From a virus (lineage: Duplodnaviria; Caudoviricetes): a stretch of 64,000 bases of DNA. Below are positions 1,160-17,286 of this stretch, one piece after another. Made by a program: the position numbers and the translations under genes. Position 1 is the first letter of the stretch. Every line of letters starts with the position of its first letter. Where the stretch lies: IMG/VR virus record IMGVR_UViG_3300037634_006988, positions 1 to 64,000 of that record; one strand, 5' to 3'. The notes under the pieces were generated by a model. That model searched no databases and was not told where the DNA came from. It saw only the letters and a list, made by a program, of their open reading frames with translations.

Positions 1160-1761
1160 TATTTCTCTCCAATAATATCATTTAATAAGCGATTTATACG
1201 GTCTGCTTTTGACCAAACTTGATTTTTCTTTGATTCGTTCATCATCATATAGGCACCTTGTGTTGAAGGTTCGGATACAATATCAAAACAAATTAGTTGA
1301 AAATCATCTTCAACAAGGGTTTGTCCTTGCGATTCATGAACTGAACCAAGACCACGAGAAGATATGCCTAATTTAACGCCATCACCAATAAGAGCTTGAA
1401 GAATTAAACCAGCAGGAGTATTGAGACACTTAACCTTTCCCATTAAATCTTTTCCTTCCCACCAAAGGGATGTAACCATGTGAGAGGCATTTTTAAGATT
1501 AACCACTGAATCTTCTGGGTGGTCAAGTTCCCCGCACGCACGGTTTTCTTTAACCACTTTCATATAATTTTTTGCTTCACGCTGTAAGATTGGACCAGGA
1601 TAAACCCTGCCGTTTCCATTTTGCTCATCACAGCGCTGCATTACACCAGAAAGAAATACTGCGCCTTCTTTGACCTGTCGTTTTTCGTCTTCTGTGAGTA
1701 AATCTTGACAGACTCCACCAGCACATAATTCATAATATTCTCTTAAGATGTATTTACTCAT
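1159..1761 (-). CDS. prohead core protease (T4 gp21-like)
   Basis: Motifs GVMQRCDEQNGNGRVYP, GELDHPE, NASHMVT, KLGISSRGLGSV and FDIVSEPSTQGA are typical of T4 gp21-type proteases. Confidence 0.93.
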   Translation of the reverse strand: MSKYILREYYELCAGGVCQDLLTEDEKRQVKEGAVFLSGVMQRCDEQNGNGRVYPGPILQREAKNYMKVVKENRACGELDHPEDSVVNLKNASHMVTSLWWEGKDLMGKVKCLNTPAGLILQALIGDGVKLGISSRGLGSVHESQGQTLVEDDFQLICFDIVSEPSTQGAYMMMNESKKNQVWSKADRINRLLNDIIGEK

Positions 1762-2429
1762 TTTTTTTGTTTCTCCCGAATTCTTTTCTTTGCTAAATTC
1801 GAATTTTCTCGCTCGTCAATCCTAATATCTGGCATTCCAGGTGACCTAAACACATCTCCGCGTTCTACTGAAGGGGAGCGACCGAGTGTGGACCTACCTA
1901 TTTTACTTGTGGGTTCTTCCGACTGGTGTCCGTGCGCCTCAACATCACCGCCAATTTCTTTAAGTGCTCTCCCCAATTCTTGATAAAAATCAGCTTCTCC
2001 TGTTTCCGACCTGTTGCTTATTTGTTTATATAACTCCATAAATTTGTGCGCTACATCAGGCTCATCCTTGCGGGTAATGCTATTAACCAAACGCTGCACT
2101 GACACATCGAATTCGCTAGATAATGAGGATAAATCTGTTTTAATTTCAAAAAGATTTGGAAGTGCATCTTTAGTTTCACCACCAGTTAAAATTTTATCCG
2201 CCACTCTCCAAGCATCACCCACAGCGTCATGCAACAAGTTAAATTCTGGTGAAGCTTCTTCGCCATCAATTAATTCTCCCAAATAATCTTCAAATTTTTC
2301 CCTGGCTTTTCCTAGTAAAATATAAACTATCCGAGCAACCCTGGCTTCTTCGTCTTTATCTAAGTCTTCTTGAAGCCTTTGTTGTTCTTCTAAGATTATT
2401 CTTTTAAATCGTTCTTTACTGATTCTCAT
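1758..2429 (-). CDS. putative internal head protein with N-terminal signal peptide
   Basis: N-terminus MRISKERFKRIILEE matches the family consensus; lies directly upstream of the protease gene. Confidence 0.65.
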   Translation of the reverse strand: MRISKERFKRIILEEQQRLQEDLDKDEEARVARIVYILLGKAREKFEDYLGELIDGEEASPEFNLLHDAVGDAWRVADKILTGGETKDALPNLFEIKTDLSSLSSEFDVSVQRLVNSITRKDEPDVAHKFMELYKQISNRSETGEADFYQELGRALKEIGGDVEAHGHQSEEPTSKIGRSTLGRSPSVERGDVFRSPGMPDIRIDERENSNLAKKRIREKQKK

Positions 2430-2442
2430 AATTCATTTCCTA

Positions 2443-2541
2443 TTAAAATGCGGGCTCACCCCGCACGAGACTGCACCCCGCTTTACAGCGTCGAACTGGT
2501 CGCAACACACGCCTTTTTGTTATGAAAGCATTTTCAAACAT
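2443..2541 (-). CDS. 32-aa Arg/Cys-rich small ORF (MFENAFITKRRVLRPVRRCKAGCSLVRGEPAF)
   Basis: Manual translation. ATG overlaps the end of 2534..2833, is preceded by a GGGGTGAG SD-like sequence, and the ORF fills the only gap in the operon. GC-rich and contains hairpins. Confidence 0.5.
   Translation of the reverse strand: MFENAFITKRRVLRPVRRCKAGCSLVRGEPAF
2449..2465 (-). terminator. possible intrinsic terminator or regulatory hairpin
   Basis: Minus strand TGCGGG-GTGAG-CCCGCA stem-loop followed by TTTTAATA; the U-tract is short. Confidence 0.35.
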
Positions 2542-2833
2542 TATTCTCACCCCTATTTCTTAAATTTATTCCTTCATCTCCAAAAACCATATTCAACACA
2601 TATGATGTCCCAGAACTAATACACGCCAAAAGGAACGCAGTAGCTATGGAATAGTCAAATGTAAATAGTTCTGTGTATTGGTTAATTGCCCACAAAAAAA
2701 GACCAACCCACCAACCCATACACATAGAACAGTGAAAAAAATGATGCGTTGGTCTGATTTTATTAAAAATTCTTCCGTAGACTACAATTTGCGTAAGCCC
2801 ATAAGCAGCAAGAACAAATAGCAATAAATTCAT
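2534..2833 (-). CDS. small membrane protein with CxxC (DUF1360-like)
   Basis: Three hydrophobic segments and FHCSMCMGWWVG, resembling the C-x-x-C-x-G-x-W motif of DUF1360. Confidence 0.65.
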   Translation of the reverse strand: MNLLLFVLAAYGLTQIVVYGRIFNKIRPTHHFFHCSMCMGWWVGLFLWAINQYTELFTFDYSIATAFLLACISSGTSYVLNMVFGDEGINLRNRGENNV

Positions 2834-3396
2834 TAATAATATCCATAACCACTTAAATAGCGACGAATACGAGATGGGGTAATTGAACCCTTCTTCGGCT
2901 CTTGAGGCACTTCCCCAAGTTTAGTTGAATCTTCTGGGGTGGGATCAACGAGGTGATCTTCTAGTTCGTTTTCTATAAACTCTTGCGCCTCCAAAGCAGG
3001 TGATTGTTTATCAATAAATTGCTTTGTTGACAGCAATACAACTTGAGTAGAGTTTACACCCTCATCCACAGCTTCAGGATATGCCGCTTCCAAACTACCA
3101 AAAACATTTCCAGCTTGCACACTCTCGGGTAATATAATTCCAGCTTGAGTTAAAAAGTTGAAATAATTGTTTTGAAACCCGTATATCTCATCGGTCAACT
3201 CTTTCTTGGGAAAGGTTGTAATCTTGCTTTGAGATGTATCCAGAACAATATCTAAGTGCAAGTGGTCTAAGATCATTATTTTTCCATCAATAGTCTTTCT
3301 TACTTCCAAAGAAATAATGGCATCCGGTGCCGGTCGGCTTGCTTGGGCCGCTTCTTCTGGAGTGATGTTCGGATCTATTTTAATATTAATGGGCAT
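2833..3396 (-). CDS. hypothetical protein
   Basis: ORF track; overlaps neighbours. Confidence 0.75.
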   Translation of the reverse strand: MPINIKIDPNITPEEAAQASRPAPDAIISLEVRKTIDGKIMILDHLHLDIVLDTSQSKITTFPKKELTDEIYGFQNNYFNFLTQAGIILPESVQAGNVFGSLEAAYPEAVDEGVNSTQVVLLSTKQFIDKQSPALEAQEFIENELEDHLVDPTPEDSTKLGEVPQEPKKGSITPSRIRRYLSGYGYY

Positions 3397-16056: not shown

Positions 16057-16323
16057 TTACCTGTCATTGCGTGCTTCTGCGATTTTGGTTAGTGCCGTAT
16101 TGGGAACCCATTCGTTTTTCCATTTGTCTTCTTCATAATAAATCAAGCTAGCAAAGCCCCCACGGCTTTTTTCCAAAATTCTGCCGACCAGGGGTGGATT
16201 TTTTGGTCCTTGATACACTTTCACCTGATCGCCAACTTCAAAAACTTCTGATTCTTCTTCACCCAAAACTCTGCCAATCTCTTCTTTAATTAATTGTTGT
16301 AGTTTTGATTTGGTTAGTTTCAT
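16057..16323 (-). CDS. signal-tagged cassette protein with KOW/SH3-like barrel
   Basis: MKLTKSKLQQLIKEE leader; FEVGDQVKVYQGP...VGRILE...EWVPNTAL. Confidence 0.7.
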   Translation of the reverse strand: MKLTKSKLQQLIKEEIGRVLGEEESEVFEVGDQVKVYQGPKNPPLVGRILEKSRGGFASLIYYEEDKWKNEWVPNTALTKIAEARNDR

Positions 16324-16661
16324 TTTGGTTGCCTAGAAGCAAGATCGCTCAGCCACGTATTATAACCCTTACTAACAGGATCTGAAGCTGGAGCTTCTTC
16401 TGGTTGTGCCTCTCCTTTTTGTTGTCTTCCGAGTTTATAATTTTCATTCATGCTTTTCAGTACGTTACTTATCATATCATAATGATGATAATCGCCAATG
16501 AGTTCCAGTTTTTCTAATAAATTATCCGTCATCTCTAATATATTTGTCTCTTCTTTGCCTATTGATACCATCTCGACTCTTTGTGAATGTGGCACTTCAC
16601 CATGAACTTCATCGAGTTCTTCTTTAATAATTTTTTGAAGTTGTGATTTGGTTAGTTTCAA
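16320..16661 (-). CDS. signal-tagged cassette protein (TTG start)
   Basis: MKLTKSQLQKIIKEE leader. Confidence 0.7.
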   Translation of the reverse strand: MKLTKSQLQKIIKEELDEVHGEVPHSQRVEMVSIGKEETNILEMTDNLLEKLELIGDYHHYDMISNVLKSMNENYKLGRQQKGEAQPEEAPASDPVSKGYNTWLSDLASRQPK

Positions 16662-16662
16662 T

Positions 16663-16953
16663 TTATAATCCTCTCTCTTCGGGACCTGCTTTTGATGTAG
16701 TCAACACACCTTCATATGGAGATCCGTCTTTGTTTACTAAATTATCATTTTCGTCCCAATAAGCAATAACTTCTTTTTTTACTAAATCTTCAAAAGCTGG
16801 TCGAAGACCAACAGGGAACACACCTTCATCATCGGCAAACTTCTTATCTGCCAATGTTTCATGTTCATCGCTGTACCAATCATCATCGCCTTCTTTTATA
16901 TTATTAATCTCTTCTTTAATAAGATTTTGTAGTTGTGATTTGGTTAGTTTCAT
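16663..16953 (-). CDS. signal-tagged acidic cassette protein
   Basis: MKLTKSQLQNLIKEE leader; 20 D/E versus 8 K/R in the 75 aa after IKE. Confidence 0.7.
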   Translation of the reverse strand: MKLTKSQLQNLIKEEINNIKEGDDDWYSDEHETLADKKFADDEGVFPVGLRPAFEDLVKKEVIAYWDENDNLVNKDGSPYEGVLTTSKAGPEERGL

Positions 16954-17028
16954 TTTGTTTGTTCCTTAATCGTCATCGTCATCTCCGGGATGACCACCGT
17001 AACGATTATAATATTCTGGGTTGTAATC

Positions 17029-17286
17029 TTATTCATCATATGGAATATTCCACATTTCCATTATCCCTTGGAGAGGTTTGGCGCGTGGGTATTCCCGCTG
17101 GAGTGCTTGAACAAGTTCTTCCAAGGCCTTTCTCGTATCGCCTTTAAAATGGGCAACAATGGTATCAGCCACACTTGAGCTTAAAGGCATCCAATCATAC
17201 GCTTCATTTACTGGTTCGTGGTTTTCTTTTAATCCGCCAAGCTCCTCTTTAATTATTTGTTGTAGTTTTGATTTTGTTAGTTTCAT
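17029..17286 (-). CDS. signal-tagged cassette protein (possible premature stop; frame continues to 16966)
   Basis: MKLTKSKLQQIIKEE leader, GGGG SD. Confidence 0.7.
   Translation of the reverse strand: MKLTKSKLQQIIKEELGGLKENHEPVNEAYDWMPLSSSVADTIVAHFKGDTRKALEELVQALQREYPRAKPLQGIMEMWNIPYDE

Follow-up and report, generated by a model that had tools for sequence, protein, structure and literature searches.

A conserved N-terminal leader on unrelated proteins of uncultured T4-like phages: a candidate capsid-targeting propeptide

The principle of marking proteins for the phage head with a removable N-terminal peptide is known from T4 and other T-even phages. In T4 a capsid-targeting sequence (CTS) of 10 residues targets the internal proteins (IPs) to the scaffolding core, and foreign CTS-tagged proteins are packaged and delivered; residues 4 and 7 serve targeting, and residues 8 and 10 (the I-x-E site) serve processing (PMC9026906). 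According to Mullaney & Black 1996, as reviewed in PMC9026906 and PMC5694885, the CTS is present on IPI, IPII, IPIII and Alt and is removed by the protease gp21, which also processes all of the T4 core and scaffold proteins (PMC5694885). The ip loci of T-even phages are a genomic hotspot encoding many different proteins with only the packaging leader in common, and T4 Ip1-3 inhibit distinct GmrSD type IV restriction enzymes (PMC12373910, where Repoila et al. 1994 is cited for the hypervariability of these loci). Here we describe another leader, of the type MKLTKSxLQxIIKEE, which heads unrelated proteins of an uncultured phage (IMG/VR virus record IMGVR_UViG_3300037634_006988) and of its relatives. 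The stretch analysed, referred to below as the window, is the first 64 kb of this 87,915-base record (CheckV completeness ~48%), and the relatives compared with it are all metagenomic fragments.

Two further systems invite comparison. Encapsulin cargo-loading peptides are short and portable and direct diverse cargo into an HK97-fold shell; they are usually C-terminal, bind the shell protein directly, are not removed by a protease and are non-viral. In the giant phages phiKZ, 201phi2-1 and SPN3US, a gp21-related protease cuts head proteins after Glu, much as we propose here, and the inner-head and ejection proteins have conserved N-termini on diverged paralogues, with extra cleavage sites within the propeptides (PMC5694885). 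These propeptides carry A/S/G-x-E and mostly exceed 100 residues (PMC5694885), whereas the leader has I-x-E and 15-22 conserved residues; nor are they, unlike the leader, a short portable tag on many unrelated proteins.

MKLTKSxLQxIIKEE-type N-termini were found on nine genes of the window, all on the minus strand, as are all of its long open reading frames (ORFs). An earlier reading of the DNA, made without database searches (the sequence-only reading), had placed leaders at the starts 2429, 8486, 11603, 11987, 12404, 16323, 16661, 16953 and 17286, and all nine were confirmed. The genes, named below by their start positions, are the following.

1758..2429, minus strand: leader protein (MRISKERFKRIILEE...) of 223 aa, directly upstream of the protease gene; profile E 6e-8
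7791..8486, minus strand: leader protein of 231 aa, mature part rich in Gly, Ala and Lys, pI 10; profile E 3e-9
10929..11603, minus strand: leader protein (MKIKNSQLRCIIREE) of 224 aa, Gly-rich hydrophobic mature part, pI 10; member of a family of 3
11625..11987, minus strand: leader protein of 120 aa, widespread Cys-containing payload family (alignment A3)
12012..12404, minus strand: leader protein of 130 aa, leader DNA and ribosome-binding region a near-duplicate of those of gene 11987
16057..17286, minus strand: four tightly packed leader genes (starts 17286, 16953, 16661 and 16323) for proteins of 85-113 aa with acidic mature parts, in the slot between the primase and SbcCD genes

Gene 8486 has a GTG start which overlaps the upstream stop codon and encodes one residue more (MIKLTEKK...), and gene 16661 starts with TTG. 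Beyond the window, the record carries two more copies, one at 73306..73617 and another, which is degenerate, at 81768..82163 (MKLTKSKLMQLINEA). When 97 non-redundant leaders (alignment A1) were made into a profile, the ten good N-terminal copies on the record were detected with E values of 1e-12 to 6e-8 per genome. When the window was scanned in six frames with a loose 8-residue core, 12 matches were obtained, corresponding to ten leaders, a second site within gene 16323 and an unrelated place at 63443.

Across the 97 leaders E14 and E15 are invariant, I12 is present in 97%, M1, K2, L8 and I12 each in at least 90%, and L3, T4, K5 and I11 each in 80-88%; residue 16, which follows E15, is L or I. 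The second L/I/V-x-E that had been noticed shortly after the leader is real, since 58 of the 97 leaders have a hydrophobic-x-E whose Glu is residue 21 or 22, and 73 have one within residues 16-26. In an AlphaFold2 model of one member, residues 5-25 are helical and a low-confidence linker follows.

The conserved stretch starts precisely with the start codon, and the preceding 50 bases are unrelated, except in the pair 11987/12404, in which the leader DNA and the ribosome-binding region are near-identical, which looks like a local duplication. Among 100 distinct leader DNAs, Leu3 is encoded by CTT, CTA, TTA, CTC and TTG, Leu8 by six codons, Ile11 and Ile12 by three, and Glu14 and Glu15 by both codons; the degenerate DNA pattern with which the leaders were collected permitted every synonymous codon at the positions compared. 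Because synonymous codons vary and the upstream DNA is unrelated, selection evidently acts on the leader peptide.

With this pattern the leader was found in 48 IMG/VR contig stretches (107 leader ORFs). Across 25 other viral contigs there are 1-12 copies per contig, and a CheckV-complete relative genome of 190.6 kb has a gp21-type (S77) protease together with 12 leader matches; a genome has 10-12 tagged genes here, as against 3-4 in T4. A profile search of 1.84 billion cluster representatives returned 11,738 proteins at E<=0.001, 142 of which reached E<=1e-10. The leader is a lineage-wide, very widespread signal and is not unique to this genome.

Its genomic association is with the head module, of which three genes at the start of the window need to be introduced.

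1159..1761, minus strand: prohead protease of the T4 gp21 family, 200 aa (Peptidase_S77, PF03420, E 3e-28; PDB 5JBL, T4 gp21, E 4e-16)
477..890, minus strand: head-module protein of 137 aa, downstream of the protease; its degenerate, leader-like N-terminus (MMKRNELKNVLKPLIKECIKEVIFED) contains three I-x-E sites
263..469, minus strand: homologue of ribosomal protein S21 (phrog_21469, E 1e-8)

The family and structure matches bear out the gp21-like protease previously claimed at 1159..1761. At both positions where the crystallised 5JBL chain has Ala, this protein has His (in GELDHP) and Ser (in GISSRGLGS), which we take to be the catalytic His and Ser of gp21. The terminase large subunit (6179..7768) shares 44% identity with those of Flavobacterium phage immuto and Microcystis phage Mel-JY01, and ~35% with those of T4-like cyanophages. 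Downstream of it lies a T4-type portal gene (4200..6173), and then come three small genes, gene 1758..2429 and the protease gene. Because of these terminase, T4-type portal and S77/gp21-type protease matches, we regard the phage as a distant T4-like myophage whose maturation protease is of the gp21 type. A divided T4-type portal match was noticed in two contigs (G009:C1:33060-35354 and G017:C1:2584-4878): its two stretches (profile positions 2-316 and 306-430) share a single open frame of 943 aa, which implies an insertion of ~360 residues in the portal, possibly an intein or an added domain.

The S77 protease was detected in 12 of the 25 leader-bearing contigs and the T4-type portal in exactly the same 12, the other 13 being fragments without the head module. 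All 12 leader contigs which cover a head module therefore encode the protease.

Leader genes also flank the protease gene. Gene 1758..2429, the product of which is probably a prohead core protein, has leader-bearing orthologues at the same position in the related contigs L050 (G005), L051 (G004), L013 and L016, and a leader-bearing gene upstream of the protease is absent in L052-L054. The gene directly downstream of the protease carries the leader in L050 (G005), L051 (G004) and L052 (G015), where it encodes 277-689 aa. In gene order, the head module of the related contigs encodes the portal, then, after three genes, a leader protein (L050, L051), the protease, a leader protein (G004, G005, G015) and a conserved protein of 140 aa; these are followed by an S21-like gene, small paralogues, a gp22-like protein and, last, a gp23-like capsid protein. 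In T4, gp67/gp68 hold the position of 1758..2429, and the protease-flanking positions held here by leader proteins belong to core and scaffold proteins (gp67, gp68 and gp22).

Protein 477..890, the position of which is conserved in five related contigs, contains 4.4 [LI]-x-E per 100 aa, compared with a genome mean of 1.4. The starts of this gene (890) and of genes 10927 and 19080 had been put forward as variant leaders. This holds only in part: 19080 belongs to a separate second class of leader (see below); 890 and 10927 resemble the main leader weakly, and the profile misses both at E<=1. Searches of the head-module neighbours against Pfam and PHROGs gave nothing but the S21 match (263..469) and an unnamed PHROG (2534..2833). 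A complex prediction in which the gp22-like scaffold protein and the 140-aa head protein of G005 were combined with a 104-aa leader protein scored 0.00; it was run without controls and counts neither way. The gene of the S21 homologue (263-469) is part of the head module and separates the small paralogues from the 137-aa head protein; its position is conserved in five related contigs and in Mel-JY01.

The leader occurs not only at N-termini but also within ORFs, as in the following gene of the window.

10211..10927, minus strand: two-module protein of 238 aa; the N-terminus resembles the leader weakly, and a full internal leader lies at the joint

The internal copy reported earlier in this gene proved to be a complete, profile-detected leader at 10523-10579 (IKIEEQELRQIIQEE, then VLRE), which starts with ATA (Ile), not ATG. 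In three related contigs (L015, L024 and L022) there are ORFs with a full leader placed in frame behind an upstream module. Copy numbers per ORF were determined for the best 149 of the 11,738 profile matches (proteins P0117-P0265): 130 of these 149 contain 2-4 copies, with a median spacing of 139 residues, and the 156 internal copies have Met at position 1 in 106 cases, V, L or I in 14 and a non-start residue in 36. Loss of stop codons between neighbouring genes cannot explain copies which have no possible start residue, and the presence of the tag within proteins fits a protease-recognised joint better than a function specific to the N-terminus. A Glu-x-Lys stretch preceding internal copies was considered as an additional cleavage site and set aside as ambiguous, since an in-frame Shine-Dalgarno sequence encodes the same residues.

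What follows the leader is highly variable. The leader proteins have a median length of 127 aa, and the mature parts of 97 of them (first 24 residues removed) form 74 BLASTP clusters, including 61 singletons; none of the ten leader proteins of the record clusters with another. The earlier statement that the downstream sequences share nothing is borne out by this analysis. The anti-defence, takeover or toxic functions suggested for them are unsupported, because searches of 95 leader proteins against Pfam and PHROGs yielded only stray or unnamed matches and no payload function, and GmrSD-inhibitor homology was not detected among the payloads. The pI of the mature parts is bimodal (35 below 5, 28 above 9 and 34 between; n=97).

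The best-populated payload family is that of gene 11987 (alignment A3), in which the leader and second site are followed by a Lys-rich linker of 0 to ~100 residues and then by a conserved domain that contains Cys. Of the 94 metagenomic homologues of this protein, essentially all that are full-length retain the leader, even at 31-36% payload identity. AlphaFold2 modelling of this payload family (8 sequences) gave a mean pLDDT of 57.5, too poor for a fold search. The mature part of 10929-11603 contains Gly-rich repeats (IPGIGEV..., IPGVGDV...); its identification as Pre-toxin TG (PT-TG, PF14449) was rejected, as the ESM Atlas score of 0.86 is below the reliable range and there was no Pfam match. 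At record positions 84684-87770, beyond the window, there are ~10 tandem small paralogues of 63-93 aa without leaders, many with a V/I-G-D/S-x-V motif (e.g. MNNFEVGDFV, MKNEKQIKIGSMV), which resemble small beta-barrel proteins. The payload of gene 16323 was considered as a leader-tagged version of these paralogues and the match was too weak (best BLAST E 0.003 in an 11-sequence database).

A part of this diversity is concentrated in one slot. With the primase gene (17298..18209) as a query, 12 relatives were read across the interval between primase and an SbcCD-like gene, in which there is no gene, or one, two or (in the window) four leader genes with differing payloads, sometimes accompanied by leaderless genes. 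Even relatives with only 45-50% primase identity have recognisable leader variants, e.g. MKINKSFLTRIIKEE and MKISKTKLKRIIKEE. The slot is like the T-even ip loci in that conserved flanks enclose different leader-tagged genes in each relative, with only the leader in common; unlike them, it is situated between primase and an SbcCD-like gene, and in a marine lineage. The SbcCD-like gene, which adjoins the slot in all relatives examined, encodes in the window (12851-15994, minus strand) a 1047-aa protein with an Mre11/SbcD-like phosphoesterase motif followed by a long coiled-coil ATPase-like region, and was read as a fused SbcCD. In L096 (positions 7-2004), six consecutive leader or leader-like genes lie upstream of the SbcCD gene.

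The same phages have a second class of leader, represented in the window by one gene.

18718..19080, minus strand: second-class leader protein (...FKSWRKFLTE), with Glu at residue 14 counted from the third Met

Its consensus is M-K-L-L-L-E-N-W-R-x-[FY]-[LI]-x-E, in which Trp is residue 8 and Glu residue 14. The pattern W-[RKQ]-x-[FY]-[LIVM]-x-E was found at 22 N-termini in the loci of relatives (a few represent the same gene twice), and in 20 of the 22 Trp is residue 8 from the first in-frame Met. The class heads diverse proteins (in the window and in L093, L095, L011, L007 and L059-L064); L093 has the strict motif on three consecutive genes, and the fourth begins with MKLLFERWRRF. This class follows the T4 CTS pattern aromatic-x-x-F-[IL]-x-E. 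Both classes place a hydrophobic-x-Glu at residues 12-14, and the shared position of the presumed scissile Glu hints at a measured propeptide length read by the core or the protease.

The motif, its modularity, peptide-level selection, the genomic associations and the presence of the protease are all observed features of these genomes. Like the T4 CTS, the leader is a short N-terminal peptide on unrelated proteins, with an MK start and an I-x-E end (the gp21 rule), and the genome that encodes it also has a T4-type head module and an S77 protease homologous to gp21. Because of the I-x-E geometry, the link with S77, the protease-flanking leader genes, the ip-like slot and the copies at module joints, we think it likely that the leader is a lineage-specific capsid-targeting propeptide which works like the T4 CTS. 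A T4-CTS-like targeting and cleavage tag used with a gp21-type protease is therefore the best-supported reading, as the sequence-only reading had it.

According to this model, residues ~5-25 would form an amphipathic helix that holds the protein on the scaffolding core during prohead assembly, with L3...L8...I11/I12...L16...L19/20 as the face docking on the core. Cleavage by the S77 protease would follow, after Glu14 (I12-x-E14), after the second hydrophobic-x-Glu (residue 21/22) or after both, so that the mature protein would be freed inside the head and could exit with the DNA. The leader is a portable tag, heading both protease-adjacent probable core proteins and thousands of unrelated small proteins in exchangeable cassette slots, and in some ORFs it joins several modules, which the protease would separate.

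Several points weigh against this interpretation. Core binding, cleavage, retention in the virion and injection are steps that we infer. By inspection, the leader (MKLTKSxLQxIIKEE) and the T4 CTS (MKTYQEFIAE) have no similarity beyond MK and I-x-E; in tblastn with the 24-residue leader, only one uncultured 484-kb record was found, and the exact tag in no cultured phage. The cleavage rule does not account for the invariant E15, which is predicted to sit at P1'. No domains typical of injected proteins were found among the 95 payloads searched with Pfam and PHROGs, and many payloads are acidic, not basic. Several leader genes follow the primase gene almost without a gap, with no sign of the late expression of head genes, and the T4 late promoter TATAAATA is not enriched (6 matches, 5.7 expected). 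Many of the multi-leader ORFs could be neighbouring genes joined by stop-codon loss, and the Met-bearing internal copies usually keep an in-frame upstream G/E-E-x-K, which can also be read as a Shine-Dalgarno sequence.

The fate of the tagged proteins is a separate question. That the cargo consists of injected effector proteins is a possibility which we put forward tentatively. Alternatively, the leader could target the prohead core and be cut by the protease, while the proteins serve mainly as accessory scaffold or filler, degraded or expelled at maturation and not delivered. Such a role would suit the leader variants on protease-flanking proteins, which occupy the positions of T4 gp67, gp68 and gp22, proteins degraded in T4 (PMC5694885), as well as the richness of small leader proteins in [LI]-x-E and the absence of effector-like domains from the 95 payloads. 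Nevertheless, we find it unlikely, since a huge repertoire with quick turnover (74 clusters for 97 proteins, 11,738 library clusters and a hypervariable slot) fits arms-race cargo better, and some payload families consist of a conserved, folded domain in which Cys residues are invariant.

The leader might also be an interaction helix which has nothing to do with the capsid and docks on a host or phage hub protein or on a membrane, the hydrophobic-x-Glu being a coincidence in an amphipathic K/E-rich helix. The leader does look like a generic amphipathic helix, many leader genes are located far from the head module, beside replication genes, and E15 is invariant even though cleavage does not need it. 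However, the leader is strictly tied to T4-type head modules, the protease is flanked by leader-bearing genes, copies occur at module joints inside ORFs, some without a start residue, and the second, unrelated leader class of the same phages also has a hydrophobic-x-Glu at residues 12-14; we consider this explanation rather improbable.

Finally, the A-rich codons following the ATG (AAA CTA ACA AAA), the near-identical leader DNA and ribosome-binding regions of 11987/12404, as recombination or duplication would give, and the location of leader genes in exchangeable slots might point to a nucleic-acid element (a cassette-exchange recombination box or a translation-initiation enhancer) encoding a functionless peptide, but this is very hard to reconcile with the 5-6 synonymous codons found at Leu3 and at Leu8, where 80-96% of leaders keep the amino acid, with the use of both Glu14/15 codons, with the exact 5' limit of conservation at the start codon, and with the retention of the peptide by internal copies that have no start codon.

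Taking the leader, as we prefer, to be a capsid-targeting propeptide, it differs from the T4 CTS in being longer (14 residues to the first Glu and ~22 to the second, versus 10 in T4), in its conserved double Glu and in the presence of several copies in some ORFs. The phages immuto and Mel-JY01, its closest cultured relatives, gave no convincing match to the leader profile, although immuto has leader-like N-termini and encodes a protein starting with MKKSQLRQIIKEA. A word-indexed protein search with one leader protein returned unnamed metagenomic proteins only, and neither the motif string nor virion proteomics of relatives (immuto, Mel-JY01) was found in the literature searched. The leader sequence and its length, the double Glu, the second site, the multi-copy ORFs, the size of the repertoire and the marine lineage are not described in that literature.

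Two other regions of the window may be mentioned. Giant ORFs of 3044 aa (30028-39162, minus strand) and 2678 aa (42921-50957, minus strand) lie in the tail/baseplate region, and a gene block at 54282-64000 (minus strand) resembles by sequence enzymes which modify sugars or nucleotide sugars (glycosyltransferase, radical-SAM, cupin, oxidoreductase and cytidylyltransferase look-alikes).

If the proposed role of the leader is correct, the principle of T4 internal proteins, familiar from a few enterobacterial phages, would extend to a broad marine lineage whose cargo set is far larger, and sequence alone would pick out the proteins which enter the host with the DNA, prime anti-defence and takeover candidates that are now unannotated. 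It would also provide a second, unrelated targeting peptide for comparing how prohead cores recognise their cargo, and a route to packaging foreign proteins into phages of hosts other than E. coli. The multi-leader ORFs suggest that head proteases may process cargo polyproteins too. More speculatively, the leader might be the address label of a very large and fast-evolving set of packaged and injected effectors (at least ~11,700 clusters, some of them protease-separable polyproteins) in abundant uncultured marine T4-like phages, in which case its detection would reveal thousands of first-wave host-takeover and anti-defence proteins.

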